DNA of 64,000 nt from Candidatus Portnoybacteria bacterium (GCA_028688325.1 JAQTYI010000001.1:104820-168819), one strand, 5' to 3'. Shown: positions 5,597 to 56,800, counted from the stretch's first letter. Notes: a model not told the origin generated them from the sequence alone. Program-made: numbers and translations.

Positions 5597-5668
5597 TCGT
5601 TCGTTTTGTTCGGAACGACAACAAAAAAAGATCTCACGCGAAATAACAATTATATTCTAACATAAAAA

Positions 5669-5709
5669 ACAAAAACCATCCCGAAAAGCGGCTATGGTTT
5701 TTGTTTTTT
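5669..5709 (-). terminator. Stem-loop plus U-run downstream of pilin gene 1 (near-identical copy at 6339-6378)
   Basis: aaaaaccat-cccgaaaagcggct-atggttttt followed by tgtttttt. It could function on either strand. Confidence 0.5.
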
Positions 5710-5727
5710 AAAAATATGAAAATAAAA

Positions 5728-6192: not shown

Positions 6193-6338
6193 AATCGTCG
6201 CTATCCTTTCGTTTGCGCGTTATTTTAACATACAAACAACTAAACGCGTCCGGACGCAAAACCCGACCATCTTGGACGCTGAAATATTTATATGTTTAAT
6301 GCTTAGTATTATTGCTCATATTATATCACTCTTTTTAA

Positions 6339-6378
6339 AAAAACAAAAACCATCCCGAAAAGCGGCTATGGTTTTTGT
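6339..6378 (-). terminator. Duplicated stem-loop terminator downstream of pilin gene 2
   Basis: Same ~40-nt sequence as at 5669-5709. Confidence 0.5.
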
Positions 6379-40383: not shown

Positions 40384-40405
40384 ATATAAATATCGCTAAA
40401 AATAG

Positions 40406-40431
40406 ATACCGCGGCCCGACAGCCGCGGTAT
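40406..40431 (-). terminator. GC-rich hairpin plus U-run downstream of the 73-aa ORF
   Basis: ataccgcgg-cccgacag-ccgcggtat. On the minus strand it is followed by cuauuuuuag. Confidence 0.45.
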
Positions 40432-40469
40432 TGCGCCGTAAACATCAAAACCGGCCGGCTCCGGCAATG

Positions 40470-40691
40470 CTATTTCACTTCGTCTATCAATTTTACGATT
40501 TTGTCCTTGGTCCCGGGAATTTCTTCGTAAGGAAAATTGTTGATAAAAAGAAATGTCTCCAGTTCCTTTACCTGATCTCCCTGTTTGTCAAAAATGGTGA
40601 AGGTCGCCAAAAACGGCTCGCCTTTTTTCATTTTTTTGACTTTGGCCGTGAAGCTTTTATACATATCGTTGCCCGATTCTTTTTTCTTCAT
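40470..40691 (-). CDS. Small 73-aa protein with own promoter and terminator (candidate precursor or recognition element)
   Basis: MKKKESGNDMYKSFTAKVKKMKKGEPFLATFTIFDKQGDQVKELETFLFINNFPYEEIPGTKDKIVKLIDEVK. It has no Cys. Confidence 0.4.
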   Translation of the reverse strand: MKKKESGNDMYKSFTAKVKKMKKGEPFLATFTIFDKQGDQVKELETFLFINNFPYEEIPGTKDKIVKLIDEVK

Positions 40692-40724
40692 ATTGTTGTC
40701 TTTATTGGTTATCCTGTGGCTTTT

Positions 40725-40752
40725 ATTATACAGCTTAGAAAATTTATTTCAA
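40725..40752 (-). promoter_or_regulatory. Sigma70-like promoter for the 73-aa ORF
   Basis: On the minus strand: TTGAAA-N16-TATAAT, ending about 33 nt upstream of the ATG. It overlaps the rSAM paralog 8 stop. Confidence 0.4.
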
Positions 40753-41751
40753 CAGAGAATCCCTTTCCGCAAAAAAGATCCTAAAATCGTCGATTTTTTT
40801 CCCCTTCACGGGCTTCAGCTCCCCGAAGCCGTAAAAATCCGCGTAGCCCTCCCTGATGCCGTAACAGATATTGTCGTAGCGGCATCCGGCGCATCCTTTA
40901 TCCTTGCGGTCATGGGCGTTTTTGGGCTCGATCGTGATGACAAAATTGGGGTTATCAATGACCGTTTTTTTCTGGACCTTCACCCAGATATTATATTTAT
41001 TCGCTTCGCCGAGCACGCAAAACGGCAGATGCTGGACGGAAATTTTAGTTTTACCGGAATTGGCTTGCAGCGCTTTTTTTATATATGGCACGGCGTCTGT
41101 CATTTTCGGCACAAGATTGCGGTGCCGCATCAGTTCTCCGGACATAATAGGAAAGCTCAAGGTGACGCTCGATTGCCCCAGCTTATCTCTCAATAAGCGC
41201 ACTACTTCGGGCAAATATTTATAGTTGCGGGCGGTAATGACAATATTTATGCTAACTCTCTGACCCAAATTACCCAAATTGATGATCCCTTGCTTAGCCC
41301 TGGTGAAAGAACCCGGAGAACAGGTCATTGAATCATATAGTTTCGCGTTATGGCCGTGAAAAGAAATGAAAAAATCATCGGCGCCGGCCTGAACCGTTTT
41401 TTCGGCAAAAGACAAATCGGAAAATTTCTGGCCGTTCGATTCCACGGCGATGGTCTCAAAACCGATGCTTTTGGCGTATTTTATTATCTCCAGGAAATCT
41501 TTTCTAACCGCCGCTTCGCCGCCCGTTATCCTGATTTTATGCGACAATTTCTTGAATTGATCCAGCCGGTTTTTTATTTCCGAAAGAGCCGGCTCTTTCC
41601 GGCCGCCGGGCTTGTTGGCGCTCACGGAACAAAACAGACAATTTTGGTTGCATCTGCCGGTTATATATATTTCCGGAACAAACAAGGCGCCTTTGTGATT
41701 TTCGGCTCTTGATTCGGATCGACTGTTGCCCGGTAATTGTTCTTTTTTCAT
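40744..41751 (-). CDS. Radical SAM enzyme, paralog 8
   Basis: CNQNCLFC, GGEAAV, SNGQKF, C-terminal CAGCRYDNICYG...GELKPV. Confidence 0.8.
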   Translation of the reverse strand: MKKEQLPGNSRSESRAENHKGALFVPEIYITGRCNQNCLFCSVSANKPGGRKEPALSEIKNRLDQFKKLSHKIRITGGEAAVRKDFLEIIKYAKSIGFETIAVESNGQKFSDLSFAEKTVQAGADDFFISFHGHNAKLYDSMTCSPGSFTRAKQGIINLGNLGQRVSINIVITARNYKYLPEVVRLLRDKLGQSSVTLSFPIMSGELMRHRNLVPKMTDAVPYIKKALQANSGKTKISVQHLPFCVLGEANKYNIWVKVQKKTVIDNPNFVITIEPKNAHDRKDKGCAGCRYDNICYGIREGYADFYGFGELKPVKGKKIDDFRIFFAERDSLLK

Positions 41752-41778
41752 ATTTTAACGCCCGGCTTTTTCCATTGA

Positions 41779-42696
41779 TTATTTTAAAATCGCTTTCAAT
41801 TTTCCCGTCCCGAATTCCTCCAGATCGCTTTTGGCAAAACCATCGCAGAAAGAATCGGCCTTGCACTTTTTACATATGGCCGCCTTGCTTTTCAACCGAT
41901 AGATCGGCAGATCTTTTATTTTTGTTTTTAATTTTCTTTCCGGCTGGCAGTATTTTCCATGGTCCGGCGGCAAGCAATTATTGATGATGTTGTTTTTTAT
42001 TTCTCCAAAAACACAAAAAGGAATTTCCATAAAACGAACCGTCTTGCCGTGTTTCCGGGAGTATTCCGCCGCTTTCTTTACATAAGGCGGCAGATCCTTT
42101 ATCGGGATATAATATTCGTGGTTGTTCCCCTCCACCTTTTTTCTGAAGGGTATAGACAAATAATAATCAACAATTGCCAATTCGTCCATTAATCTTAACC
42201 AATCCGCTAAATCGTTCTTATTTTGCTCCATGATCAAATTGGATACCTGTATCTCGATTGCCGGTGCAAGTTTTTTTATGGTGCGGAGCCCCTTTAAGAC
42301 CGAATCGAAGCTCCCTTTTCTTCTGGTGATCAAATCGTGTATCTCTTTATTTGACCCGTAAACGGGGACCCTTAATTTATCGACGCCGGTTTTTATTAAT
42401 TTTTTTAAAAAATCCTCTTCCCCCAGTTTGTTGCCGTGGCTGGAAAGCTGCACGAATCCAAATCCGATATTTTTCGCATATTTTATCAGCCTTAAGATCC
42501 CGCCGTACTCGATCGGATCCGCTCCTGATATTTCCAGCCGCCCCAGGCCCTTTTGTTTGAATTCAAGCAAACACTTGAAAACATTGATCTCTTGCTTTTC
42601 CAGTTCGGTTCGGCTGGCTTTCGGCACCCTTCGACAAAAAACACAATGGTTTTCGCATGAGGGATTGATGATTACGCCCCCTGTTTCTTTTTTCAT
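41779..42696 (-). CDS. Radical SAM enzyme, paralog 9
   Basis: CENHCVFC, C-terminal CKKCKADSFCDG. Confidence 0.75.
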   Translation of the reverse strand: MKKETGGVIINPSCENHCVFCRRVPKASRTELEKQEINVFKCLLEFKQKGLGRLEISGADPIEYGGILRLIKYAKNIGFGFVQLSSHGNKLGEEDFLKKLIKTGVDKLRVPVYGSNKEIHDLITRRKGSFDSVLKGLRTIKKLAPAIEIQVSNLIMEQNKNDLADWLRLMDELAIVDYYLSIPFRKKVEGNNHEYYIPIKDLPPYVKKAAEYSRKHGKTVRFMEIPFCVFGEIKNNIINNCLPPDHGKYCQPERKLKTKIKDLPIYRLKSKAAICKKCKADSFCDGFAKSDLEEFGTGKLKAILK

Positions 42697-42703
42697 ATCT
42701 TTA

Positions 42704-44044
42704 TTAAATCAGCGGATCTCGGGCCGACCATCGGCCGCCGGCCAATTTGGCCGCGTGCCGGCTGCCGCCGCGGCACTTATATCTGAAGTCGCAATTATCG
42801 CACCCTTTGGGCAAAAATCCCAGCGAGCGCATTTTTTTCATGAAGGGATGGCGCCAGGCCTTTAAAATTTCCAAAGGGCCGGCCAGCTTCTTGTCGATAA
42901 AATAATGCGGCTTGACAAATCCCCGCGGGTCGACCACCAGGCGGCTGTGGCCTTCATCAAATAAAGCGCCCGAGCTTATCGCGTTCATTTTGTTCCGGTC
43001 CTCTATCACACAGAACGGAACGGAATTGGCAATGGAAATTATTTTATCCGTCCGGTTTCTCAACTGAAAAATTTTATCAACCAGAGCACTTAAATCCGCT
43101 CGGCTGAGCTCGGCTTGCTTGCTAATGAACGCCGGCCGGTAAAATTCCCACTCGTCGATCGGCAAAGCTAAAATAAATTCGGCCATTTTGTCAAAATTTA
43201 AAATGGCATCGCGGCTGACCACGCTCCCCGCCCTCACCTTTGGAACTCCGGCTTTTTTCAATGAAGTTGCCGCTTTTGTCTTTTTTTCCAAAGCATCAGG
43301 AAAGCCGCAAAGTTTCTCCTCGATTTTATTATCACAACTTTCTATCGGTATCAAAATATTATCGACTAAGCCGGTCAGCTTTTTAATTGTTCGCTCATCC
43401 AATAAAGAACCGTTGGTATTAAGCCGCGTTTCCAGCTTCTTTTTCTTGGCGTAACGCAAAAGTTCAAAAATATCCGCTCTGAGCATGGGCTCACCGCCCG
43501 TAAACCTGATAATTTTTACGCCCGCTTTAGCAACGCTGTCAATAATTTTTTTCACATATTGCGTACTGAAAGGCCTGACATTCCTGCCTTGTTTGGCAAA
43601 AGATATTTTATTGAAACAAAATTGACAATTGAAATTACACTTGGGTTCAACTTCAACCATAACCTCAACAGGCAGATCTTTGATCGGCTTAATCTCTTGA
43701 TTGCCGTATTTTTTAAAATAACCGGCTGGGAAACCCGCGCAATCCTTAAAATATTTACACTGACGGCAATCGACTGTTTTTTTTCTCCTACGAGCTCCTT
43801 TTTCCGGCAAAATGTGGTCCCGTGATCTTTCATTGACAACGCAAAAAGGAAACCCTTTCAGCCAGACCTCCAGATGGTCTTCTTTATCCAAAGCATGATA
43901 AACCGATGGAATGATCGCGGAAAATTGCGGCAAAACGGCCGCCCGCTTGTTCACCGTTATTTCCAGCTTGCCGCCCCTCTTGGCGGCGATATCGGCCGCC
44001 GCCGGGATTTTTGCATGGTTGGATTTATCCGTTATGAATATCAT
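42704..44044 (-). CDS. Radical SAM enzyme, paralog 10, with extra N-terminal copy of the Cys-rich C-terminal domain (fusion)
   Basis: N-terminal FPFCVV...CRQCKYFKDCAG...YGNQEIKPI, then the core CNFNCQFC, GGEPML, TNGSLL, and a C-terminal CDNCDFRYKCRGG. Confidence 0.75.
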   Translation of the reverse strand: MIFITDKSNHAKIPAAADIAAKRGGKLEITVNKRAAVLPQFSAIIPSVYHALDKEDHLEVWLKGFPFCVVNERSRDHILPEKGARRRKKTVDCRQCKYFKDCAGFPAGYFKKYGNQEIKPIKDLPVEVMVEVEPKCNFNCQFCFNKISFAKQGRNVRPFSTQYVKKIIDSVAKAGVKIIRFTGGEPMLRADIFELLRYAKKKKLETRLNTNGSLLDERTIKKLTGLVDNILIPIESCDNKIEEKLCGFPDALEKKTKAATSLKKAGVPKVRAGSVVSRDAILNFDKMAEFILALPIDEWEFYRPAFISKQAELSRADLSALVDKIFQLRNRTDKIISIANSVPFCVIEDRNKMNAISSGALFDEGHSRLVVDPRGFVKPHYFIDKKLAGPLEILKAWRHPFMKKMRSLGFLPKGCDNCDFRYKCRGGSRHAAKLAGGRWSARDPLI

Positions 44045-45036
44045 TTTTCCGTTCCGGTTAAATTTTTATCACGGTCTTGCGCCAATTTTTTATAAACCGC
44101 CGCGCAATAATCGCATCTGTAACATTCGCTCTTGCAGCTTAATATTTTTTTATGGAAAGCCGCGGGTAATTTGTCAGTGGTGATGCCCAAAGGAGATTTT
44201 TTGCTGGTAAAAACGGCGCTAACATCCATCGGTTCGCCAAAAACATAATACCTGATCATTTTTTCCAACATATCGACGGGCGTGTCCCGGCCGACCAATT
44301 TGAAGAACTTCGCCTTGTAGTACGGCAGCATCTCCCTGGTAACAAACGGCGATCTTAAAACATTGGCGGGATCGTTGGCAAAAAAAGAATTGCAGAGGCT
44401 CTTTATTTTTGCCAGGGGCTGGCTCTGATCGGAAAAGTGCGCCAGAGTGATGAAAGTGCCGTGGTCGCCCGAGAGCGAACAGCGAGGCGCGCAACCTTCA
44501 TTGAGCATCACATCGGCGTCCACGCCGATTGAATCAGCGTAATCTATGATCCTATTGACCAACTTATAGTCGCGGTTGATATCTCTGTCTATTACAAGAT
44601 ATTTTATTTCCGGGAACCTGGACTTGATGCTGTGCAAATGCTGAGGCGTACCAACCCGATAAGTGACACTCACGCCTTTCTGGAAATTCCCAAAATTCTT
44701 ATGCGCGAACAAAACCATGGAGGCAAAGATCAGGACGGTATGCTTGCTACTATAAGGCGTCAGATCGACCGCGTCGTAATCAAAACCTCCTTGAAGATCG
44801 TGCGGAGTTGCGTTGAACAAAATGTTGAATCTTTTATTATTTTTAAGACACCACTTATATACCCTGTCGAAAAAATCTTCAGAAGGAGAAAGCAGCACCC
44901 GGCCGGAGGGAGCATTTTGCCAACCCAAATATACTCCACCTATGAATTTCTTATATTTTTCCAAGATGCGGAAATATCCCTCGTCGTCCTTGCCTATAGG
45001 CATCAAAAAACGGTTATTCAAAAAATTTTGAGTCAT
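44041..45036 (-). CDS. Hypothetical protein with C-terminal CxxxCxxCxxC
   Basis: 331 aa. NEGCAPRCSLSG and CKSECYRCDYC. A weak resemblance to U32-type proteins is not established. Confidence 0.35.
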   Translation of the reverse strand: MTQNFLNNRFLMPIGKDDEGYFRILEKYKKFIGGVYLGWQNAPSGRVLLSPSEDFFDRVYKWCLKNNKRFNILFNATPHDLQGGFDYDAVDLTPYSSKHTVLIFASMVLFAHKNFGNFQKGVSVTYRVGTPQHLHSIKSRFPEIKYLVIDRDINRDYKLVNRIIDYADSIGVDADVMLNEGCAPRCSLSGDHGTFITLAHFSDQSQPLAKIKSLCNSFFANDPANVLRSPFVTREMLPYYKAKFFKLVGRDTPVDMLEKMIRYYVFGEPMDVSAVFTSKKSPLGITTDKLPAAFHKKILSCKSECYRCDYCAAVYKKLAQDRDKNLTGTEK

Positions 45037-45041
45037 GGCGG

Positions 45042-45989
45042 TTAATTTCCGATACGGCTGAAATTATTTTTTATGGTTTTTGGCGGCCAACAGAACATCG
45101 GATGAAAGCAGGCCTCGTCGCAACAAGGGCATTGTTCATGCTGCCCCAAGTCCTTTATTTTTTTAACATAAACGCCTTTGGCGACATTTCCTATTTCCCG
45201 GGTGCTGTTAAAACAGGGATACACCGACCCATCCGGCCTAACATCGGCAAAAATGTTTCCGGCCAGGCATTTATCCATCAGCGGCATCTTGCCTGTTTTT
45301 AAATATTCGCCTTGCGCCTTTAAAAATGGATCATCCGAGCCGCAATTTTTTATGAAATCGACAACCAGCGCCTTTTGCTTGCCAGAAAATTCAAGCCGCT
45401 TTTCATGATTATAATGGTAAACGCTGTTATAAAACGGCCTGAAAGAAAAAGCACTGCCGGTTTGGACCGCGATTTTTTTAATATGATTAAGAGAGCGTCG
45501 ATTGCAATTTAGATGTGTTAAAGTGGTTAAAATAACCGTCTGTAGCCGAGGCGCCGCTGCTCGACAAAGCTTTAAAGTCAGGAGCGCAGAATTATAGCTG
45601 TCAATGCCTCTGATCTTTTTATTAGTCACCCCGTCTCCTTCCAAAGAAACGGCCAAGCGCAAGGTTTTTATCTGTTGATTTTTATTCAATTTTTTAAATA
45701 ATTCAGCCGCTTTTAAGGGAGAAGTGCCGTTGGTCGTTAAAAGAAACTTCGTAACCTTGGGCATGGAGCGCAAAATAGTTTTAATAATCTGCTCTATGTC
45801 TTTTCTCAAAAATGCCTCTCCTCCGGAAATAAAAAATTCTTCCACTTCTTGAAATTCCGGTTGGGAAAATAATTTTTTATATTGAGAAGCGCTAACTTCT
45901 CGACCCGTTGCTTGTTCCTTCCAAAGATGACAAATCAAACAACGACTGTTGCATTTTCTGGTAACTCTAATTCCCAAGCTTTTTAACAT
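45042..45989 (-). CDS. Radical SAM enzyme, paralog 11
   Basis: CNSRCLIC, GGEAFL, TNGTSP. C-terminal Cys residues CPCCDEAC. Confidence 0.75.
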   Translation of the reverse strand: MLKSLGIRVTRKCNSRCLICHLWKEQATGREVSASQYKKLFSQPEFQEVEEFFISGGEAFLRKDIEQIIKTILRSMPKVTKFLLTTNGTSPLKAAELFKKLNKNQQIKTLRLAVSLEGDGVTNKKIRGIDSYNSALLTLKLCRAAAPRLQTVILTTLTHLNCNRRSLNHIKKIAVQTGSAFSFRPFYNSVYHYNHEKRLEFSGKQKALVVDFIKNCGSDDPFLKAQGEYLKTGKMPLMDKCLAGNIFADVRPDGSVYPCFNSTREIGNVAKGVYVKKIKDLGQHEQCPCCDEACFHPMFCWPPKTIKNNFSRIGN

Positions 45990-46038
45990 TGTTTTTTATT
46001 AAATTCGCTTCTGTCCGCACAAAGAACCTCCCCGATTT

Positions 46039-47262
46039 TTAACCGAAATTCTCGTTGATAGAACCAATCACCGTTCCCAGCGCTTTATTTAAAATATTTT
46101 TTCTAATATTAAGTGGCGGCTGCACAAACAGCATGTTATCGGAATAATTTTTAAAAAGCAGCACGCCCTTTTTTAAACAATCATTAAAAATCTTTCTGGC
46201 GTCATTGTTGTTAAAAAATTCTATCGCGATAATCAGCCCCTTTCCTCTAATCTCTTTGACTGCCTTGTTTTTACTCAAACTTTTTTTTAAAAAACCGAGG
46301 GTCAAGCGTCCCAGATCACAGCTGTTTTTTGCCAGTTTTTCCTCTTCAATGATGTTAATATTTTCCAGGGCAACGGCGCACGCCAAAGGAGACCAGGCGA
46401 AAGTCGACATATAAACAAAGTTACCGATAAGTTCTTTTCTGGAAACCACCGCCGATATTGGAGCGTAACCGCTGCCAAGCCCCTTGGCCAAACAAACCAT
46501 ATCCGGACAAATACTGAAATGCTCGAAAGAAAACATTTTGCCAGTCCGGCCAAAACCCGTCAAAACCTCGTCAAAGATAAGTAAGGTTCCGTATCGCCGG
46601 CACATTTTAAGAACTTCTTTGAAAAAACCATCCGGAAAATTAAAACAGCCGGCGCTGGTCACGACTCCCTCCGCTACAAATCCCGCGCAGCCCCCCCGCT
46701 TAAGCTCCTTTTCTATGGACTTTAAAGTTTTTTTAAAATCAGCGGGAAGGGCGCGGCCTTTGTTCAAAGAAGACGGATGTTTGATAGTGGCAAAGCGCGC
46801 TAATATCGGCGTAAATTCTTTGGTCAGCCGGTTCTCCCCTCCCAAAGACATAGCGGCGAAAGTATGGCCGTGGTAGGCACCCTTAAAACTCAAAAATTTG
46901 CTCCGCCCTGTTTGGCGCGCGGCGATTTTCATGGCGATTTCCACCGCTTCGCTCCCGGTCGTGGCGCGCAAAACCGAATCAAAACCCGCCGGGAACAGAC
47001 CTAAAATCTTTTTGGCCAATAAGATCGATTCGCTGGTTTCCTGTAATTGCGGCGAAAATATGTTTTTTTCGGCCTGCCGGCGCATCACTTCCTTCATCCT
47101 ATGACTGTTGTACCCCACGGCCACCACGCCGGCGCTGGCCGACAGATCAACATATTTTTTATTGTTTTCATCGTAAAGATAAACATCGTCCGTCCGGACG
47201 ATTTTCAAGCCGGGCAGATTGCAAGGATAAAGATATGATTCTTTTTTCGGTTTCGTTTTCAT
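46039..47262 (-). CDS. Class III PLP-dependent aminotransferase
   Basis: DEVLTGFGRTG motif. 407 aa. Confidence 0.75.
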   Translation of the reverse strand: MKTKPKKESYLYPCNLPGLKIVRTDDVYLYDENNKKYVDLSASAGVVAVGYNSHRMKEVMRRQAEKNIFSPQLQETSESILLAKKILGLFPAGFDSVLRATTGSEAVEIAMKIAARQTGRSKFLSFKGAYHGHTFAAMSLGGENRLTKEFTPILARFATIKHPSSLNKGRALPADFKKTLKSIEKELKRGGCAGFVAEGVVTSAGCFNFPDGFFKEVLKMCRRYGTLLIFDEVLTGFGRTGKMFSFEHFSICPDMVCLAKGLGSGYAPISAVVSRKELIGNFVYMSTFAWSPLACAVALENINIIEEEKLAKNSCDLGRLTLGFLKKSLSKNKAVKEIRGKGLIIAIEFFNNNDARKIFNDCLKKGVLLFKNYSDNMLFVQPPLNIRKNILNKALGTVIGSINENFG

Positions 47263-47272
47263 TAAAATAAGT

Positions 47273-48355
47273 TTACCGACGCTTTTTATTCTTTAAGACC
47301 AGCGGCCGGATAATATCTTCGTATTTTTTTACCCAATCGTTGATGGAAAAATTATTTTCGGCGTATCGCCTGACTCCCCGCCGGTTGATATTCCCTATTT
47401 TTTTTATCGCCCGGGCCATTGCTTCTATATCCCCGTCGGGAACTATATAGCCGCTAACCTTGTCTTCCACAACTTCCCTTACCGCCGCCCGGTCAAAAGC
47501 AATGACGGGCGCGCCACAAGCCATTGATTCCACCAAAACTAAGCCGAAGGGCTCATCCCATTGGATCGGAAAAAGGGTCGCTGCGGCTTTTTGAAAAAGC
47601 TTAATCTTTGTCTTAAAATCCACTTCTCCCGAATAAACAATGTTTTTATTGTCAATATGCGGTTTTATGAGATCGTTGAAATAAGAAAGGTTGGACGGGC
47701 TGATGCCGCCGGCGATGATCAGTTTCCTGCCCGCCCTTTTGGCGGCCTCGATCGCCAAATGAACTCCTTTTTCCGGGCAAATCCTGCCGATAAACAGCAA
47801 ATGTTCTTTTTTTGAAAAAGACAAGGGAAAATCCTTAAAATCAAAAGATGGATAAAACGGTTCCAGATAATTGAGTCCCGGCATCGCGCTTTTTATGAAA
47901 TCGGACATCGGCAAATAATGAACATTTTTTATCCCTGATATGGATTTTTTTAAATAAGGAAAAATTTCTTTGTGGGGATAATTTATTTGAATTACTATCG
48001 GTATTTCTGACTGCCCGGCAAAGGGCAGAATTTTATAAAAAACATGGTCATTGAACTGAATCAGGTCAAAATTTTTCTGCCGGCCGGAACTGAAAAAATC
48101 GGCCAGCGCCACGGTATCGTAAAAATTATTGACTCTTTCTTCCAGCTGACCCCTTTCCAATTTTGCAATAGTGGAAAATGGAGAAATTTTCTCAACTTTT
48201 GCTCCTTTTATCTTTGACCCGGGCGCGGCAAAAAGAACGATCTTGTGGCCTCTTTTTACCAGCTCTTTTATCAAATAAAATGCCGGCTGTTCTATTCCGC
48301 CGGTTTTTGGCGGCGGCACGATATTTCTTGAAGACATAAAAAAAGCGATTTTCAT
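47273..48355 (-). CDS. GT-B glycosyltransferase (GT4-like)
   Basis: EPFGLVLVESMACGAPVI motif. Confidence 0.7.
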   Translation of the reverse strand: MKIAFFMSSRNIVPPPKTGGIEQPAFYLIKELVKRGHKIVLFAAPGSKIKGAKVEKISPFSTIAKLERGQLEERVNNFYDTVALADFFSSGRQKNFDLIQFNDHVFYKILPFAGQSEIPIVIQINYPHKEIFPYLKKSISGIKNVHYLPMSDFIKSAMPGLNYLEPFYPSFDFKDFPLSFSKKEHLLFIGRICPEKGVHLAIEAAKRAGRKLIIAGGISPSNLSYFNDLIKPHIDNKNIVYSGEVDFKTKIKLFQKAAATLFPIQWDEPFGLVLVESMACGAPVIAFDRAAVREVVEDKVSGYIVPDGDIEAMARAIKKIGNINRRGVRRYAENNFSINDWVKKYEDIIRPLVLKNKKRR

Positions 48356-48372
48356 TGGAGCGAAGTAAAAAA

Positions 48373-49293
48373 TTATTTGCTTTTTATCACCGCCTTATCC
48401 CAAAAAATCCGGTCGACGGAAAGGGAGCAGGAACATTCTTCGTATAAACACTGGGAAAATGTTTTTCTTAGCTCAAAATCACCCTTTAAAAGATTACCCA
48501 AATAGCCCTTTTTCGCCCGGCAAGCCATCACGCAAGAATAGGCGGCCCCGTTAGGAAGCATAAAAAAAGACCAGAAACCGGCAGAACATTTCCGGCCCTT
48601 AAAGCTGGCCGACGGCTTGTCTATCCCCTGATTGCTGCAAGCCGCGGCAAAATCATTGAATCTTGGCAGATTATAATTTTGGTTGAGCTGCTTCAGAATT
48701 TTTTTTTGTCTGGCAGAATATTGAAAAAAAGTGCGATCGGGGCGCTGATAGGCCCAAATTATAAGCTGAACACCGGCTTCAAAAAACTTCTTTTTGATTT
48801 TCTCCAGATAAGGCAGCTTATCGACTATTCCGACCGAGGTGACCAGCAAATTTTTTTTAAAACCGGGAAATGATTTTTCTATTTCTGATACCTTGCTTAA
48901 AAAAGCATCTGACTTGACATAATCTAAGTGCAAGCTGGCAAAAACCAAGAAAAGTCGGCCCTTGGTTATCTTCAAGAATTTGACGATCTTATCCGACTTG
49001 GCAGAAAAATTAGTGTAAATGGAAATGCGATGCAACTGCTTTAGCTTGGTCAATCCTTTAATCGCTTCCAAAAAATCATCGTGAAAAAACGGCTCTCCGC
49101 CTAAAATAGTAACATCCCATTTCCCCTTCAGTTTGTTTTTCAGGCCTTCCACTATTGCCAGAGGGCTAACCGAGCTTGGTTCTTTTTTCACCGAGGCAAA
49201 ACAATACGGACACCTGTAATTGCAAGTATCTGTAATAACCCAATTGATATTATGAGTATAAATCGAGAACGGATTATTTTTTGCCTTTTTCAT
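48373..49293 (-). CDS. Radical SAM enzyme, HxsC-like partner maturase
   Basis: CNYRCPYC, GGEPFF. A Cys-rich C-terminus distinct from paralogs 1-11. It lies immediately downstream of the HxS-repeat gene. Confidence 0.6.
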   Translation of the reverse strand: MKKAKNNPFSIYTHNINWVITDTCNYRCPYCFASVKKEPSSVSPLAIVEGLKNKLKGKWDVTILGGEPFFHDDFLEAIKGLTKLKQLHRISIYTNFSAKSDKIVKFLKITKGRLFLVFASLHLDYVKSDAFLSKVSEIEKSFPGFKKNLLVTSVGIVDKLPYLEKIKKKFFEAGVQLIIWAYQRPDRTFFQYSARQKKILKQLNQNYNLPRFNDFAAACSNQGIDKPSASFKGRKCSAGFWSFFMLPNGAAYSCVMACRAKKGYLGNLLKGDFELRKTFSQCLYEECSCSLSVDRIFWDKAVIKSK

Positions 49294-49430
49294 AATAATG
49301 ACCGATCAAGCCGATTTAAATATCGCCAAATAAAAACAACTTTTTATAATATTTACTCCATTATATTCTTCCAAACTGATAAGTCAATTAATTCTCTCAA
49401 TGGCAAAACCCGGATAAAATCGCGCGGTCT

Positions 49431-49465
49431 AAAAAAGGATTCCGAACAAAAAATGCTCGGAATCC
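49431..49465 (-). terminator. Rho-independent terminator after the HxS-repeat gene
   Basis: On the minus strand: ggattccgag-cattttttgt-tcggaatcc followed by tttttt. Confidence 0.6.
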
Positions 49466-49498
49466 TACAGAATTATCCGCCCGCCGCAAAAATTCCGG

Positions 49499-49897
49499 TT
49501 AATAAGAGTTGTGCGAGCCGTGGGAGCTGTGAGAAGCGTGAGAAGCGTGAGAAGCGTGAGAAGCGTGGGAGCCGTGGGAAGCATGGGAAGCATGGGAAGC
49601 ATGAGAGCCATGAGAGCCATGGGAAGCATGGGAAGCATGAGAAGCATGAGAAGCATGAGAAGCATGAGAGCCATGAGAGCCATGAGAAGCATGAGAGGCA
49701 TGAGAGGCATGAGAGGCATGAGAGGCATGGAAGCAATAAGCGGAAGCATTATCCGCTTTGGCGAGCCCCGATAACCCCGCGCCCAGAGACAAAACAACCA
49801 AAGATATTTTAGCCATATCCTTTTTGATGATCTTGCCCTCCTCGCTCGTTAAAAAGGTCCTAATGTCTTTTTTTATCTGAGGTAATTTTTTCCTCAT
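49499..49897 (-). CDS. hxsA: His-Xaa-Ser repeat protein (HxsA-like), secreted
   Basis: An alternative ATG at 49816 gives a signal peptide MAKISLVVLSLGAGLSGLAKA. The core is DNASAYCF(HAS/HGS)n...SHNSY. It is flanked by two rSAM genes, as in the defined Hxs system. Confidence 0.55.
   Translation of the reverse strand: MRKKLPQIKKDIRTFLTSEEGKIIKKDMAKISLVVLSLGAGLSGLAKADNASAYCFHASHASHASHASHASHGSHGSHASHASHASHASHASHGSHGSHASHASHASHGSHASHASHASHASHSSHGSHNSY
49511..49735. repeat. About 25 tandem 9-bp units (RTGVGARSC) encoding the HxS repeats
   Basis: Sequence is gtgagaagc/gtgggaagc/atgagagcc... It is open in 4-5 reading frames on both strands. Confidence 0.9.
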
Positions 49898-49970
49898 TTT
49901 TCTTTTCTCAAAATTTTATTCTTTTGCCTCTTTCGGTTTCAAAATCGGCGCAAAACACCTTCTTCGTTTG

Positions 49971-50000
49971 ATTATAACAGATAATAAATATCCCCGTCAA
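49971..50000 (-). promoter_or_regulatory. Near-consensus sigma70-like promoter for the HxS-repeat gene
   Basis: On the minus strand: TTGACG-N18-TATAAT, about 70 nt upstream of the ATG at 49897. Confidence 0.5.
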
Positions 50001-50041: not shown

Positions 50042-51514
50042 TCATCGTTTCACCCAGTTCTCAAAAACCGCCTTTATTTTATCATCGGACATCTTCTCAA
50101 AAAGATAATCCAGGATTGCCTTGCTTATTTTGCAGCGCTCGTTGGTCGCCATCTGGCCAAAAATATTTCCCTGGTCCACATAATTGAAAATGGGGCAGGT
50201 GCCGCAATATGGCTGATAAGCGCAATCGCTGCAGCCGGCCGCGCCCGCCAGGCAAGAAGCCAGGCAAACGGTCTTTATCACCGGACTGTCTATCAATTCC
50301 CGGTAAGTATTCTTATGGACATTCCCGAGCTTGAAGCTTTCGTCATCCATCATGCTCAGCATCCGGCCTTCGTCGCAAGTGTAAACATCGCCATTGTAAT
50401 TATAAGCCATCTGGCCAATGCCCGCGCCGCAAGGCGAACGGTAATCAACCATATTGATATCTTCGTCGGTCAAAATCTTCATCAGAAATATCTTGGCAAA
50501 CCGTTCCTCGAATTTTACGCCTTTCAGGTTTATCTCAATGATGTAATCCAGGGCCTTTTTATAGAAAGCGATGAAATCGTCGCTGTCGTAGCCGAACTGG
50601 CTCCAAGCTTTTTTGGAAAAGCCGAATGGATCAAGCGGTCGCAAAAAGATATTGCCGAATCCCAATCGCACATATTCGTCGACTATCTCTTTGGGATGCG
50701 CCAGCGCCGGCCGGCTCACAGTTATGATCCCGGCCACGCGCCAGATAAAGCCCTTCCTTTCCATTTTCGCGTAATCTTTTTGGAACCTTTCTATCCAACG
50801 GACGGCCCGTTCATATCCGTTCGCCTTTTTACCGTTATCTATCAGCGGCCGGTTCTGGTTGTGGATCGCTTCCGGGCCGTCGAGAGAAGTGCAGGTGCTG
50901 ACTTTATTCTTCAGCAAATACTGGTATTTTTCCTCGGTCATCAAGCTGAAATTGGTCACAAGGCGCAACTCCAGTTTTTTCCCGGTCTTTTTACTTTTCT
51001 GACGCGCTTTTTTAACGATGAACCGCACCAGAGGCCAGTTGGCCAGCGGCTCGCCGCCCTGGAATTCAATGGCGACAAAGGGGCTCGTCGTTTCAAAGAT
51101 GACATCCAAAGCTTTGGCCGCCGTTTCTTTGCTCATATCCGCGTTTTTCTGCTCTATCGTCTGGGCCGAAGCGTGGCAATAAACGCACCGGTGGTTGCAG
51201 CGCAGAGTAACCACCATAACATGCAGAGTTGGACCAAAAAACAGGTATTCGTGCCTTGAGCGGTGCTGCCTGATGGCCAGTTCCGCGTTGAATTCCTTTT
51301 TGACGAAATTATTTTCAACCAAAGACAAATATGGCTTGCTTTTTTTATCCAGCTTGCCCTCAATGAAATTCGTGAATTCTTTGGCGGCCAGAAATTGGTA
51401 TCTCCCCTCTTCATTGGTCAGAAGATACTTGTCTTTCAGTTTCTTGAACCGAAAAAATCCCAATTCCTTATATTTTATTTTTTTCAGGTCTATCACCATA
51501 GCGCCGTTTATCAA
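50042..51514 (-). CDS. hxsB: Radical SAM/SPASM enzyme, HxsB-like (anSME-like)
   Basis: CNHRCVYC, GGEPL, SLDGPEAIHNQNRP. Full SPASM domain: CGAGIGQ...C and CLAGAAGCSDCAYQPYCGTCP. Confidence 0.6.
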   Translation of the reverse strand: MINGAMVIDLKKIKYKELGFFRFKKLKDKYLLTNEEGRYQFLAAKEFTNFIEGKLDKKSKPYLSLVENNFVKKEFNAELAIRQHRSRHEYLFFGPTLHVMVVTLRCNHRCVYCHASAQTIEQKNADMSKETAAKALDVIFETTSPFVAIEFQGGEPLANWPLVRFIVKKARQKSKKTGKKLELRLVTNFSLMTEEKYQYLLKNKVSTCTSLDGPEAIHNQNRPLIDNGKKANGYERAVRWIERFQKDYAKMERKGFIWRVAGIITVSRPALAHPKEIVDEYVRLGFGNIFLRPLDPFGFSKKAWSQFGYDSDDFIAFYKKALDYIIEINLKGVKFEERFAKIFLMKILTDEDINMVDYRSPCGAGIGQMAYNYNGDVYTCDEGRMLSMMDDESFKLGNVHKNTYRELIDSPVIKTVCLASCLAGAAGCSDCAYQPYCGTCPIFNYVDQGNIFGQMATNERCKISKAILDYLFEKMSDDKIKAVFENWVKR

Positions 51515-51517
51515 CGA

Positions 51518-51736
51518 TTATTTCATCAGCCCCAGAACATAATTGCAAAATTCCTGCTCAACGGCGCCGGCCATTTCCGGGTCGATATTCCTCAACAAAA
51601 CCTTGATATATCCTTTTCCGTCAACCACGGAAAAATCGGCCAGGTCCTTAAATTCCCGGCTGGCCATCTTTATCGCTTTCAAGCTGTAGAAGCGCTTGTT
51701 GAAATTGATATCCGCGCTGTTTTTTTCTTTAGGCAT
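51518..51736 (-). CDS. Small protein, HxsD-like by position
   Basis: 72 aa from MPKEKN. The track ORF extends to 51841, which would overlap the upstream gene. Confidence 0.3.
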   Translation of the reverse strand: MPKEKNSADINFNKRFYSLKAIKMASREFKDLADFSVVDGKGYIKVLLRNIDPEMAGAVEQEFCNYVLGLMK

Positions 51737-51747
51737 CCTTCTCGTGG

Positions 51748-52290
51748 TTATTTCTTGCTCTTGGCTTTTTTCGGCTTTTTCTCTTCTTGTTTCGCTTCGG
51801 GCTCTTCCTGTTTTTCCGGCTGACCGTATTTTTCTTCCCAAGGAACAGCGATGCCCAAGGGGTCGCTGGCGGAATCAAAGCCGATTTCCACGGGTTTGGC
51901 TTCGCAGTCGCACGGTTCACTGTTGGCGGCTGAAAATAACGCCCGCTCCACCACATATTGGCGGATCTTCTTGTTCTCCGCGGAAATCCCGACCCGCAAA
52001 GCGTAGTTTAAAAGTTCATTCAGAAAGTCGCCGGCCAAAACCCGGAGCTCTCCGGCCGACAACTTTTGCTTGGGCGTCAGAACCACTTCTATTTTTGAAC
52101 CGTTGCTGTCCAGAAACAAATATGCCTTGTCTATAAAAACATAACTGGCGCCGTAAACGGCCTCCAGCGGATAAATCGTCGTATTTAATGCCAAGGTTAA
52201 AGAATTTTTGTTGATTTTTTTTAGCATGCGTCGAAAATAATTTATTGGTGTTGTAATTTTAGACGACTGCCTGGCGGAAGTCAATATCAA
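51748..52290 (-). CDS. Hypothetical protein with Lys/Glu-rich C-terminal tail
   Basis: 180 aa. Confidence 0.35.
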   Translation of the reverse strand: MILTSARQSSKITTPINYFRRMLKKINKNSLTLALNTTIYPLEAVYGASYVFIDKAYLFLDSNGSKIEVVLTPKQKLSAGELRVLAGDFLNELLNYALRVGISAENKKIRQYVVERALFSAANSEPCDCEAKPVEIGFDSASDPLGIAVPWEEKYGQPEKQEEPEAKQEEKKPKKAKSKK

Positions 52291-52326: not shown

Positions 52327-52827
52327 TTACTTCAACCTTATGTCGCCCCGAATCCTTAGTCCGCCTTTTAAATTGATCGAAGGGATAAGCAAGAGAAAAG
52401 AATCACCGGAAATCCAGTCTGTAACACTGCTGTTATTATCGGTTATCTGCAACCGCCAATAATACCTAATGTTCAAAGACAAACCGCCAGTGCTATATGA
52501 TCTGGCTGCAGCGTTTGAAACGACCCCGGAATCCACATTAACCGAGCCGAACCCGGAATCATCATCAATCTGCACCTGATAAGCTGCTTGCGTATTGCCA
52601 ACAGCCGAAGCAAAAGTCCAATAAACAGTGGCATAACCGGCCCAAGGAGACAAAACGGCCTGGGCCGTGCAAGCGGTAAAATTACTGCCGGCATTCAATG
52701 TGGCCGCTTGGGCTTTCTGAATCGGAGAAAAAGAATGAAATATTAAATCTAAAACCAGCGCTAAAGCGATCATTTTATAAATTGCCGGTTTTGATAAAAA
52801 TTTTAATTCTGGCTTAATAAAAATCAT
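52327..52827 (-). CDS. Secreted hypothetical protein
   Basis: 166 aa. N-terminal anchor or signal sequence. Confidence 0.35.
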   Translation of the reverse strand: MIFIKPELKFLSKPAIYKMIALALVLDLIFHSFSPIQKAQAATLNAGSNFTACTAQAVLSPWAGYATVYWTFASAVGNTQAAYQVQIDDDSGFGSVNVDSGVVSNAAARSYSTGGLSLNIRYYWRLQITDNNSSVTDWISGDSFLLLIPSINLKGGLRIRGDIRLK

Positions 52828-52883: not shown

Positions 52884-53603
52884 TTATTCTAAAATTACGC
52901 CCCTTACACTTTCCAGCGATAGATCGTTAAGCCCTTTTTTAACTGACTTCTCATATCCCCTTTTTCCGCCAAAAACTTCCAGCAAGAAATCCCTTTGCGT
53001 GACCGATGGAAAATTATACTCGCCCAAATAATCCAAGTGGCTGCTCCATTTATATTTGTTCAAAAATTTCCATGCTTTGTCCGAATCTTTAATTTTTCCT
53101 TCCCGCCATTCCGGCGCCGCCAAATCCAACGGATTTAAATGAATATAATAAGGCAAATGGATGAAATGGGATCGGTTCTCAACCAAAACCGATTTGTATT
53201 TTCTTTCAAAAAGAGTTCCGGTCCTCTCGCGGCGTTGATTGAAATATTGAACATATCCGCCGTTTAATTTTTGCATGAATAACGCGATGCCTTTCTCAAC
53301 CGCCGGGCTTAGCAATAAATGATAGTGGTTTGGCATCAGACAAAAAGCGTGGATTTTAACCAACAATTTCCTTTCTCTTTGCCGTATCTCACGCACTCTG
53401 ACTGCGTGAGATACGGCATTAAACTTATAAAAATTTGACTGGACTCTTTGCTGATCGTTGAATTCAAAAAGGTCGTGGATAAAACGAAAACGGTCTTTAT
53501 CGTCCATAAAAATTTTACGCTTGTCGACTCCCCTGTTCAGCACATGGTATATTTCCGTCATAAATTTTAATTTAATTTTATTAAGTATCGCGCTCCGCCT
53601 CAC
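52884..53603 (-). CDS. Y1 (HUH) transposase, COG1943 / IS200-like long form
   Basis: HRGNRRQDIF-type N-terminus HVLNRGVDKRKIFMDDKDR. HUH motif LMPNHYHLLL. RYKS Tyr block. The likely start is the ATG at 53561. Confidence 0.7.
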   Translation of the reverse strand: MRRSAILNKIKLKFMTEIYHVLNRGVDKRKIFMDDKDRFRFIHDLFEFNDQQRVQSNFYKFNAVSHAVRVREIRQRERKLLVKIHAFCLMPNHYHLLLSPAVEKGIALFMQKLNGGYVQYFNQRRERTGTLFERKYKSVLVENRSHFIHLPYYIHLNPLDLAAPEWREGKIKDSDKAWKFLNKYKWSSHLDYLGEYNFPSVTQRDFLLEVFGGKRGYEKSVKKGLNDLSLESVRGVILE

Positions 53604-53630
53604 GCAGTCAGAGTGCGTGAGATTACGATG
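53380..53630. mobile_element. IS200-like subterminal hairpins
   Basis: Hairpin 53380-53418 (16-bp stem) and hairpin 53599-53621 (8-bp stem). Their cores are exact reverse complements of each other. Confidence 0.4.
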
Positions 53631-53870
53631 TTGGGGTCGGGGTTGGTGTAGCTTCCGGAGTAGTCAATGGAGTCGATGTTGGTGTTGGTGTTGGGGTTGG
53701 TGTAGCTTCCGGAGTAGTCAATGGGGTCGGTGTTGGTGTAGGAGTTGGGGTTGGGGTTGGTGTTGGGGTTGATGTCGGAGTCGGAGTAGCGGCCGGGGTT
53801 GGTGTTGGTGTGGCTTCCGGAGTAATCAATGGGGTAGCAGTTGGTGTTGGTGTAGCCAAAGGAATTTCCG
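53623..53870. repeat. GGTGTT-rich microsatellite-like region with about three ~57-bp tandem units encoding the TP linker
   Basis: The unit ggtgtagcttccggagtagtcaatgg(a/g)gtcg repeats and encodes LTTPEATPTPTP... Confidence 0.7.
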
Positions 53871-56800
53871 CCTGCCGGGTATTTTCGGCTACCGTGTCCA
53901 CTATCCACCAGCTGAAGCCGATTATTTGAGTGGAAGAAGCATTCATGCAAACCCTGAATCCCTGCGGCCGCTCAACGCTTCCCACATATTCGGGCTGGCT
54001 ATGCCGCTCGCAAATACCCATCGCCACCGGCATATCCGGCGTCACAAATATCTTGGTGGTTGTTGAAACCTGATTATTCATTATATAGGTATCCATTTCG
54101 CCTACATTTATTTGGCTCGAACCGATGGTCGCGTCTCCTTGGGCCGGAGTGGTGTTAATGGCCAGCTTGTCGGCCTGCAAAATATTTGCCGCCAATTTTT
54201 GCGCCTGCACTATTCCCTGACCCACTATCAGACCCATTTGGCGCAAACCGCCGATGACCGAAGCATACAAATTATCCACTAAAGCCACGATGGACGAAGG
54301 CGCAAGTTCTATCTTGTCGCCGCCTAATGTTTCCAACACCTGGTTGAAATTCGTCTGGGCGCTCAAAGCCCCGCTGGCCACGGTGTTTTCCAGTGTTGCC
54401 AGCCGCGTTTCCAGCGAATCAGTTTTTATTTTCACTTCGTCCACTTTGCCGCTCAGCGTTTTAACGCCCGCCAAAGTGAAGCTCGACAATTTATACAAAT
54501 CCACCCCTTTGCCGTCCGCGCTCAAAACCTCAAGCGGCGCTTCTTCGGCAATAAGGCCCAAGCGCTTATTACAGCCCCCGCTCCCACTATTGTCACCCTG
54601 AACTTGGTTCAGGGTCTGAGATCCCGAACCAAGTTCGGGATGACAAACTTCATCGCTGTTGTAGTAATAGGTCGCCACTTTGGCGTTGGTTATTTTGGCC
54701 AAAACATTCTCATAGTCCGCCGAACTCAAATACTCAATATCTTTTTTCGCCTCGCGCGTTGACAAATTGACAAAACCGGTAGCGCCGATATCCCCGCCCA
54801 CGGCCAGCCGAATGCCTGTGCTGGTGGCCGGTGTGCTTGTGCCGATGCCAATATTCCCCAGCGCATCCACGCTCATAAACGGCGAAGTGGTGGAAATGTC
54901 CGAAGCAATACTGATGCCCGAGAATAAGGGGGAAGAAGAAGCATAGAGCGCTTGGATGGAGTTAACCAGATAAGGAATTATGAAATCGGTTTTTAATCCC
55001 AGCATGCCGGTGGCCGGGTTTGTAACAACCACCGCTTCTGGAATCACGCTTTGTACCTCCTGCGCGATAAAGCCAAGTTGATTGGTTTGGCCATTGATAT
55101 AATCAAACCGTACGGGATTTAACTGAAGGATTATCTCCAACCCTCTGCCCAAATTGACAACATTTTCTTTAAGGCGGCGATCCGAACCATAAACCCAAGA
55201 AGCGGCTTTTATTTCCGCATATCCGTCATCGCGTATCACCAGAGTCGCGGAATCGTTTGAATCAACGACGATAAGACCATAGGTGCCACTCGTAGTTCCG
55301 CTACCTCCGACTTTTAATCTGGCGGATATATTCGCCGTCCCGATGCCGACATTGCCGCTGGTATCTATCGTCATTCTTTGCGGATTAGTCGCCCCGTCAA
55401 TTTCCTGAAACATTAATCTGCCTGTATCAGTCATATGCTGTATTCTCCAGGTTTGCGGCGAATCTTTATCAATAAGATCTAAAAAAGGATAATCTCCGGT
55501 CAATTCAACTCCACCGTTTCCCGTTGTTGTAAGGTTTAGGATAACATTATCAGAGCCAGCGTTTACATCTAATTTATACCCCGGGCTCGCCGTCCCGATG
55601 CCGACATTGCCGTTTTTAGAAATCTGCATAACTGGTGTGGTTGCATCATTGTTTGTAAAGAACATGAAATTACCGAAATTGGTTCCGGAGCCGGCCGTGG
55701 AGTAGTTGATAAACTTCATATTATCGTTTGCGTCGTTTACTAACATGTCTATCTTCCCATTCGCAGAAGATAATCTTATTGTTCCATTAACACCAGAGAC
55801 AGAATAAACATGCAACTTCGCCTCTGGACTATTTGTCCCAATTCCGACATTGCCGTTTCCATCAATCGTCAATCTATCGCTAGTACCGACCGCGGTAGAA
55901 GAAGCAATCTTGAATTTATTGGCGTCAGCGGTGTCTATTCCCATAGTCCATGCAATAGTTCCATCTCCGGTTGTGATGCCTATGGCTGGAGTAGTATCGT
56001 TATGGAGAGTTAAAACATTGTTGGGAGTGCTCGTCCCTATCCCCACACTCCCATTGGCCAGCACGGTCAGCAGAGTGGAGGTTGCCGTTCCGGCGGTGGT
56101 GCTCGCGATAGTGAAGAGCGGCGTGTTGGCAAGAGTGGTTGCGCTGTTTGAAATGGAAAGTAGAGAATATGGCGAGGTGGTGCCGATGCCGACGGAGCCC
56201 TCTATTATTGCTCCCGATGTAGGCGCAGCCAATGTTCCATAGGTCGCTCCTACGGCAAGATTTCCGACAACGCCCAATTTTGCCGCCGGCGCTGTTCCAG
56301 TGCCAACCCCCAAATAACCAAGAATATTGTTAGAGGCAGATGCCCCCCTAACATAAAGACCGCGAAATGAATCTGTGCCATCTACATCAAGGCCTATGTT
56401 AGAAGAGTCGGCAGGATATATAATAACACTCGACTTCCCAGCCGAAGGCACAACATGTAGTTGGCCTATCGGCGCCGCCGTTCCGATGCCCACATTTCCA
56501 TTCTCGTCCACCGTGAAATATGTGCCGGTGGATGAGCCGATGGAGAAACTATGCGCGCCGGCCGGGGCGTTCACGGACAAAGTAGACCAGGGAGTAGTAG
56601 TGCCAATCCCCACATTCCCGTTGGCCGAAACCGTCAAGGTTGAGGTGGCCTGCCAAGCCGAGTCCTGATAGGTCAAGGTCTGGCCTTGGGTGCCGACGGG
56701 CAAAGTGTTTACGCCTATCGTGAATAAAGTTGAGGTGCTCACCCATTCGGTGGCCGAGCCGGTGGATTTGAGAATGTAGCCGTTGGCGCCGGCCGAAGAC

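Follow-up and report, generated by a model that had tools for sequence, protein, structure and literature searches.

The question raised by this locus is whether the substrate gene of a His-Xaa-Ser (HXS) radical S-adenosylmethionine (SAM) cluster is transcribed as a unit of its own. The DNA analysed, hereafter the window, is a 64,000-nucleotide (nt) stretch of Candidatus Portnoybacteria bacterium (GCA_028688325.1 JAQTYI010000001.1:104820-168819), in which a small His-Xaa-Ser repeat gene, hxsA4, lies on the minus strand between a promoter-like site, P1, and a terminator-like hairpin, T1. A first-pass annotation of this DNA had described the gene as a precursor-like expression unit, with its own promoter and terminator and standing in front of enzyme genes. 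Here, we find that the motifs exceed chance expectation and have a precedent in the precursor genes of ribosomally synthesised and post-translationally modified peptides (RiPPs), although the terminator is not a family-wide trait and the downstream neighbour had been misidentified. We consider it probable that in this lineage hxsA4 forms a self-contained P1-T1 transcription unit for the substrate or effector of an HXS system, with a stoichiometric purpose.

Promoter and terminator signals around hxsA4

P1 is present exactly as first described, with TTGACG-N18-TATAAT at 50000-49971 on the minus strand, and the distance to the start codon, previously given as about 70 nt, is 73 nt when measured from the end of the -10 box to the hxsA4 ATG at 49897. 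The site matches the promoter consensus at 11 of 12 positions and lies wholly inside the 144-nt hxsB-hxsA spacer, with the hxsB stop at 50042. In a consensus scan of 11 kb it was the top-ranked promoter-like site, and the sole top site that also carries the TG of an extended -10 box. Across both strands of the 64-kb window, four sites reach at least 11 of 12 matches where 0.75 would be expected, and when the TG is required the expectation falls to 0.05 per window, both values being derived from first-order Markov simulations of the window. All four sites share the minus strand, where nearly all genes of this DNA are encoded; three are wholly intergenic, and one (40752-40725) extends over the final 9 nt of the gene before it. 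Two of them (50000-49971 and 49387-49360) flank hxsA4. The minus strand has three exact copies of TGTTATAAT, at 49979, 20614 and 15701, and every one lies in a spacer that precedes a gene of that strand.

The hairpin and T-run after hxsA4 were likewise found, although the stem of T1 has 13 pairs rather than the nine first counted (10 perfect Watson-Crick pairs, then G.U, C-G and A-U), and it begins 32 nt past the TAA stop codon (49501-49499) and not strictly immediately after it. Its arms are AGGATTCCGAGCA and TGTTCGGAATCCT at 49466-49436, and the T-run extends to 49431. Only two terminator-like sites with 13 pairs occur in the window, T1 among them. A further hairpin fills the gap between the stop codon and T1 (Table 1), and the 74-nt 3' flank of hxsA4 folds with -31.2 kcal/mol (z = -5.5), with none of 200 shuffles folding as well. 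The spacers around hxsA4 measure 144 nt (5') and 205 nt (3'), whereas neighbouring genes lie within 3-17 nt of each other.

Downstream of P1, a weaker promoter-like site inside the predicted 5' untranslated region (5'UTR) is a possible alternative start, and TAAAAT or TATAAT boxes are found near the equivalent proximal position in three of the related loci described below (L081, L082 and L088). A known RNA element in the 5'UTR or elsewhere was considered and rejected: Rfam gave nothing at gathering thresholds in the whole window and locally one chance-level match only, and the fold of the 5'UTR was not significant (-10.8 kcal/mol, z = -1.85).

Table 1. Positions of the genes and predicted signals of the HXS cluster in the window, in order of transcription.
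Feature	Position	Strand	Detail
P0, promoter-like site	52256..52284	minus	TTGACT-N17-TAAAAT (10/12); ~30 nt upstream of ATG 52227
hxsD	51748..52290	minus	TIGR03976 at 60.6 bits, cut-off 50
hxsD', second, HxsD-like small gene	51518..51841	minus	NF038315 at 68.7 bits, cut-off 41
hxsB, radical SAM/SPASM maturase	50042..51514	minus	TIGR03978 at 541.5 bits, cut-off 370
P1, promoter-like site	49971..50000	minus	TTGACG-N18-TATAAT; TG at -15/-14 gives extended -10 TGTTATAAT
Predicted 5'UTR, ~67 nt	49898..49964	minus	Start assumed ~7 nt past -10 box
Weaker proximal promoter-like site	49913..49942	minus	TTGAAA-N18-TAAAAT (10/12); inside predicted 5'UTR
hxsA4, 132 amino acids	49499..49897	minus	NF038313 at 92.2 bits, cut-off 55
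First 3' hairpin, right after stop codon	49468..49497	minus	From folding; fills gap between stop and T1
T1, intrinsic-terminator-like hairpin and T-run	49431..49466	minus	13 pairs, loop UUUUU
P2, promoter-like site	49360..49387	minus	TTGACT-N16-TATAAT (11/12); 44 nt past T1
Eight-gene block between hxsA4 and orf73/hxsC-like genes	40744..49293	minus	Profile matches and comparison with L082
P3, promoter-like site	40725..40752	minus	TTGAAA-N16-TATAAT (11/12); upstream of orf73
orf73, 73 amino acids, family unassigned	40470..40691	minus	Homologous to 74-amino-acid reading frame after hxsA in L082
T2, strong hairpin	40398..40431	minus	ATACCGCGGC/GCCGCGGTAT + CTATTTTT; -20.6 kcal/mol
Conserved HxsC-like radical SAM gene, 298 amino acids	39487..40383	minus	Best matches HxsC4 and HxsC, both below cut-off

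The hxsA4 gene and its product

The small open reading frame (ORF) had been taken for a substrate-type gene, and this is borne out by its score against NF038313 (Table 1), the NCBIfam model "His-Xaa-Ser repeat protein HxsA4", which is a curated 'exception' model. On this match, hxsA4 is a member of the curated HxsA4 subtype of the HXS radical SAM system and its product is a substrate-type protein. The match covers residues 4-98, the model representing the conserved N-terminus and the first repeats. HxsA4 consists of an N-terminal segment, LPQIKKDIRTFLTSEEGKIIKKD, a hydrophobic segment ending in AKA/D, and 25 uninterrupted His-Xaa-Ser repeats, and its N-terminal motif is common to 22 loci. The hydrophobic segment, which is signal-like, comes only after a conserved N-terminal extension of 29 residues. 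We rejected Met28 as the start codon, although it would yield a textbook signal peptide, because relatives preserve the protein sequence encoded by the first 27 codons and differ there by synonymous changes. A Pfam search returned no domain in HxsA4, hence no peptidoglycan-binding domain was detected.

Repeat number is very variable among close relatives, since the HxsA4 homologue in L088 (4572-6080; HxsB 71% identical) has at least 149 His-Xaa-Ser repeats in at least 503 amino acids and runs off the contig end, compared with 25 repeats in the window and ~25 in L082. In locus L004 a second copy of hxsA4 is present in tandem (5459-5717). When the window is compared with its strain variant L087, ~99% identical, ~19 mostly synonymous substitutions are seen in the ~400-nt repeat array (window 49531-49730) with the repeat number unchanged, which is ~5 times the locus average rate; these changes may come from exchange between repeats and not from point mutation.

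Conservation of the promoter among relatives

Using HxsB alignment we fetched 80 genome loci, plus the closest metagenomic relatives, and a metagenome scan for further close relatives gave four loci only, one of them the strain variant L087. A ~99% variant of the window is present on JGI contig Ga0265297_10010326. In 55 of the 80 genome loci, hxsB is closely followed by an HxS-repeat ORF in the same orientation. An HxsA4-type N-terminus is present in 22 loci, and the 20 in which hxsA4 is adjacent to hxsB served as the promoter test set. With the extended -10 box defined as TGnTAnnnT having at least 5 of 6 matches to TATAAT, the hxsB-hxsA spacer contains such a box in 10 of these 20 loci, where dinucleotide-shuffled versions of those spacers predict 0.6; the background in these loci is 0.37 per kb, and the enrichment in the spacer is ~17-fold. 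The ten positive loci are all low-GC and Patescibacteria-like, while the four high-GC loci have none. Furthermore, TGTTATAAT itself is retained in L081 (91% HxsB identity) and L082 (70%), and the distance from the extended -10 box to the ATG ranges from ~10 to 129 nt across loci. A spacer between hxsB and hxsA4 is consistently present across the HxsA4 loci, with a median of ~80 nt. In L087, P1, the 5'UTR, T1 and P2 are all unchanged, with one substitution in 349 nt of spacer.

The motifs, their improbability under chance, the gene family identities and the conservation of the promoter box are direct observations. Because the box is found in half of the spacers at ~17-fold enrichment, an internal promoter ahead of hxsA4 is, as read from these alignments, a conserved trait of Patescibacteria-type loci, with its exact form drifting.

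A transcription model for the cluster

The function of P1 and T1 in vivo, the ends and relative abundance of the transcripts, and the stoichiometric purpose are what we infer from this arrangement. The product of hxsA4 would be the substrate or effector of an HxsA4-type His-Xaa-Ser radical SAM maturation. P1, as an extended -10 promoter of sigma-70 type, would start an hxsA4 mRNA of ~530 nt, and T1, as a canonical intrinsic terminator, would end it ~65 nt past the stop codon. The gene would be transcribed from both P0, which likely starts the hxsD-hxsD'-hxsB transcript, and P1, and read-through from P0 would also end at T1 because hxsB and hxsA4 have no intervening terminator. P2 would then restart transcription for an unrelated-looking, lineage-specific block of eight genes, so that the predicted order is P0-hxsD-hxsD'-hxsB, P1-hxsA4-T1, P2-eight genes, P3-orf73-T2, and the hxsC-like gene onward. 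The extra dedicated promoter would serve to raise hxsA4 mRNA above maturase mRNA, because the repeat protein would be used in bulk and the maturases are catalytic. The expression argument nonetheless adds little that is new, because HxsA has already been established as a substrate and not an enzyme.

Two elements of the first-pass annotation had to be given up. It had read the gene order as hxsB-hxsA-hxsC, but the gene following T1 encodes a radical SAM protein of 306 amino acids whose score against HxsC is 25.8 bits (cut-off 267.9) and whose nearest family is an unrelated one, and this gene has its own 11/12 promoter. It had also placed hxsA in front of enzyme genes, whereas hxsA4 stands at the end of the hxsD-hxsD'-hxsB group; since the downstream gene is not hxsC and has a promoter of its own, hxsA4 is not ahead of its own enzyme genes.

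Evidence against the model and alternative explanations

Several observations weigh against a dedicated hxsA4 unit. Even L081, the nearest relative, does not keep the -35 hexamer, having TTATCA at a shifted position instead, and L086 and L088 (67-71% HxsB identity) are without the distal extended -10 box. The conservation of the spacer in L087 is suggestive but statistically weak, with one substitution where ~3.5 would be expected, and the promoter rules for Patescibacteria are without experimental basis. The Shine-Dalgarno sequence before the hxsA4 ATG is also weak and does not suggest very high translation, and the high-level expression first proposed is unsupported. On the 3' side, no terminator follows hxsA in L089, and in eight more distant HxsA4 loci the terminator is absent, there being no room for one because the next gene starts 6-18 nt past the stop. 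Across the family, hairpins significant by the shuffle test come after hxsA in 9 of 51 loci (18%) and control gene ends in 13 of 110 (12%), which is no enrichment.

Conservation in homologous loci, whose lack the first-pass annotation had named as a refutation, is therefore seen for the extended -10 box but extends for the terminator to the nearest clade only. L082 has a clear terminator after hxsA (AAAACAGCTT / AAGCTGTTTT), as does L093 (AAAATACCCCG, 11 nt, CGGGGTATTTT), where it lies between convergent genes; both are non-homologous to T1, and L094 has only a weak hairpin and T8. We dropped the terminator as a family-wide trait on the comparison of hxsA and control ends. An earlier strict consensus scan of 50 homologous loci, with terminators in three only and promoters scattered, was replaced by the shuffle-calibrated tests, as it misses loops longer than 8 nt and T-tracts that overlap the stem, and mixes GC-rich phyla. 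Because it is absent in the eight distant loci and hairpins are not enriched family-wide, the terminator is by these comparisons lineage-specific, a feature of the window, L082 and L093 and not of the HxS family.

A rival account, to which we give a minor share of belief, is that hxsA4 is the last gene of an hxsD-hxsD'-hxsB-hxsA4 operon, with T1 an ordinary terminator, P2 the promoter of a later-inserted block, P1 minor and nothing precursor-specific about the arrangement. The position of hxsA as last gene of the canonical HXS system (PMC13128918; Aeromonas pAsa4) agrees with this, as does the terminator of L093, which sits between convergent genes as at any operon end, and the absence of a terminator wherever the next gene is tightly linked. 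The downstream genes can be read in the same way: the 306-amino-acid gene after P2 has no convincing homologue in the other fetched loci besides the strain variant (two marginal partial matches, 21-32% identity), and in L082 (5331-6662 region) the 74-amino-acid ORF, orf74, and the hxsC-like gene directly follow hxsA, while their window homologues are ~9 kb downstream. However, no insertion scars, boundary repeats or similarity to the L082 spacer were found for the ~9 kb block, and although an operon end accounts for T1 and P2 it does not account for P1, as extended -10 boxes in the spacer are 17-fold above background. Nor does it explain why hxsA4 is consistently spaced from hxsB (median ~80 nt) when the canonical genes overlap.

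We think it improbable that T1 is instead a leaky attenuator, acting only partially so that P1 drives hxsA4 and the downstream genes together, as happens with precursor genes of the lanA type. The T1 hairpin is strong, is followed by a T6 run and shows no obvious weakening, and read-through past it is not needed because an 11/12 promoter, P2, follows directly. None-the-less, attenuators after precursor genes are documented (PMC7113386), and in the eight distant loci a promoter before hxsA4 must serve both genes, because the gap to the next gene is 6-18 nt. The orf73 unit has exactly such a design, as T2 ends only ~20 nt before the hxsC-like ATG and so leaves no room for a promoter there. Least credible to us, and disfavoured, is that the motifs arose by chance in AT-rich intergenic DNA and have no regulatory role. 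AT-rich spacers do readily give -10-like hexamers, and permissive generic scans resemble shuffled sequence, with 24 promoter-like sites against 17.5 and 14 terminator-like sites against 15.4, but a site of P1 quality is expected only 0.05-0.75 times per window, no shuffle matched the fold around T1, both signals are correctly oriented, ordered and spaced with respect to a single small gene, and the promoter box is conserved across loci.

Neighbouring genes and the rest of the window

The true start of hxsD is probably the ATG at 52227, which precedes the HxsD-model region, and not the listed far-upstream TTG. Homologues of hxsD were found in 86 fetched loci and those of hxsD' in 37. HxsB has the Pfam domains Radical_SAM and SPASM, and its homologues with 50-91% identity come mostly from metagenome-assembled genomes (MAGs) named Portnoybacteria, Falkowbacteria, Magasanikbacteria or Patescibacteria group, which makes a Patescibacteria (CPR) source for the window most likely. 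The block downstream of P2 encodes the 306-amino-acid radical SAM protein, a GT4 glycosyltransferase, a class III aminotransferase and a radical SAM protein of 315 amino acids; its other four genes encode a protein of 331 amino acids assigned as unknown, a radical SAM/SPASM protein of 446 amino acids and two HxsC-like radical SAM proteins (305 and 335 amino acids). With HxsB and the 298-amino-acid gene included, the cluster has seven radical SAM genes in total.

No HxsC maturase is found beside HxsB, and no protein of the window reaches the cut-off of TIGR03977 or NF038332. The 298-amino-acid HxsC-like gene scores 162 bits against HxsC4 (NF038332, cut-off 500) and 104 bits against HxsC (TIGR03977, cut-off 267.9), and has homologues in 51 fetched loci, with 76% identity in L082; although ~9 kb from hxsA4, on this distribution it is the conserved HxsC-like partner of the system. 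Between it and the block lies orf73, whose product is 68% identical to that of the L082/L083 ORF and has no Pfam, NCBIfam or PADLOC match. A relationship of orf73 to HxsD was rejected, there being neither BLASTP similarity nor a family match. The orf73 unit (40398-40752) is built like the hxsA4 unit, with an 11/12 promoter, a small gene and a strong terminator, and its product could be a second substrate or accessory protein of the HXS system. In L001, L002, L007, L039 and L094, the gene 6-18 nt past hxsA4 encodes a protein of ~260-310 amino acids with an N-terminal transmembrane helix, which is a possible conserved partner that is absent beside hxsA4 in the window.

Just upstream of hxsD on the minus strand are an IS200/Y1-transposase-like (REP-associated tyrosine transposase-like) gene and a gene for a small protein (window 52884-53603 and 52327-52827, respectively), and the same pair is upstream of hxsD in L082 (1334-2619). 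The small protein has an Ig_Rha78A_N domain in the window and in L086, while its L082 counterpart is without a Pfam match. Synteny upstream of hxsD is conserved, in that a giant surface-type protein precedes this pair. In the window this is a 3458-amino-acid ORF that runs to the window edge (53623-63999, minus), with an internal duplication of ~300 amino acids, many 'GNVGIGT' motifs and a C-terminal Thr/Pro-rich linker, typical of the giant surface proteins of genomes like those of the candidate phyla radiation. Elsewhere, a hairpin and T-run of together ~40 nt, AAAAACCATAGCCGCTTTTCGGGATGGTTTTTGTTTTTT, occurs twice on the minus strand (~5630-5671 and ~6304-6345), flanking a gene at 5728-6192, and is a duplicated terminator-like element.

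Comparison with known systems

For an uncultured, Patescibacteria-like genome, the analysis gives a predicted map of how an HxsA4-type cluster is transcribed, running from P0 and hxsD/D'/B through P1, hxsA4 and T1 to P2 onward. It also provides evidence for TGnTATAAT extended -10 boxes as markers of real promoters in such genomes, which should help heterologous expression of such clusters. The known chemistry and function of HxsA are unchanged by the finding, and it was known before both that HxsA is a substrate and that precursor genes can be built in this way. Useful by-products are the extended -10 box, conserved upstream of hxsA4 in Patescibacteria-type genomes, and the difference from the canonical operon with its tight coupling.

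Lantibiotic genes of the lanA/nisA type have a comparable promoter-attenuator arrangement at the precursor gene. The bottromycin cluster of Streptomyces scabies has an internal transcription start before btmD and a predicted attenuator after it, for which the rationale is the stoichiometry of substrate and enzyme, and every RiPP precursor gene in the btmD organism has its own start site (PMC7113386). The hxsA4 unit resembles these in being a small substrate gene beside radical SAM or tailoring enzymes that has its own promoter despite the enzyme genes upstream, and in the hairpin terminator that follows it, with the same rationale of more substrate than catalyst. However, the btmD start is documented, whereas the hxsA4 promoter and terminator are predicted from sequence, and the RiPP product is a short leader-core peptide rather than a 132-amino-acid repeat protein with a signal-like hydrophobic segment. 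The hxsA4 unit also differs in having a strong new promoter after the terminator, so that no read-through is required, and in that its terminator is confined to the nearest clade. The dedicated-promoter principle of RiPP clusters would thereby extend to the HxsA4 subtype, with the promoter conserved, in contrast to canonical gammaproteobacterial hxsA, which is translationally coupled to hxsC.

HxsA was already known as a substrate (TIGRFAMs/NCBIfam; Nat Commun 2026), and the gammaproteobacterial HXS system is an antiphage system that blocks DNA entry, with the gene order hxsD-hxsB-hxsC-hxsA in 99.6% of cases (PMC13128918). The window shares with it HxsB (37% identity, TIGR03978), HxsD and a His-Xaa-Ser substrate with an N-terminal hydrophobic or signal-like region. 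The arrangement is different, as the canonical genes are tightly packed in the order D-B-C-A, whereas the window has D-D'-B, a 144-nt spacer and A4, with a HxsC-like gene that scores below cut-off ~9 kb away. In Aeromonas salmonicida pAsa4, hxsA and hxsC share 4 nt and hxsA is flanked by neither a promoter nor a terminator signal, compared with the 144-nt spacer and P1 of the window, and the Mesorhizobium and Leptospira plasmid HXS loci are equally compact. PADLOC, which in its 2023 version contains no HXS models, gave only generic viperin-level radical SAM similarity in the window. From its gene content and layout, the window system should not be filed as a canonical antiphage operon.

According to a published survey based on HxsA, Pseudomonadota account for 99.7% of HXS systems (PMC13128918). 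MAGs of Patescibacteria, Omnitrophota, Elusimicrobiota and Myxococcota contain abundant homologues of HxsB that have an HxS-repeat gene beside them, and HxsB relatives were confirmed in at least 591 genome stretches. Non-canonical HXS subtypes, judged by these homologues, seem to have been missed by that survey. To the NF038313 family model, which is silent on transcription, our analysis adds that low-GC genomes conserve an extended -10 box upstream of hxsA4.

More speculatively, and as an outside prospect, HxsA4 loci may form a distinct HXS branch, widespread in Patescibacteria, in which a separately promoted poly(His-Xaa-Ser) chain of variable length is made in bulk, exported through its signal-like segment, and could build up outside the cell as a layer or envelope able to bind incoming phage DNA or metal ions. 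If so, the conserved extended -10 promoter would be a device for the bulk supply of HxsA4, possibly allowing regulation independent of the maturases. Canonical HxsA has 214 amino acids, with an N-terminal signal peptide, five repeats and a peptidoglycan-binding domain, whereas HxsA4 of the window has 25 perfect repeats and no peptidoglycan-binding domain detected. On this proposal the HxsA4 effector would stand in contrast to an effector that has five repeats, is anchored to peptidoglycan and is encoded last in a tight operon.

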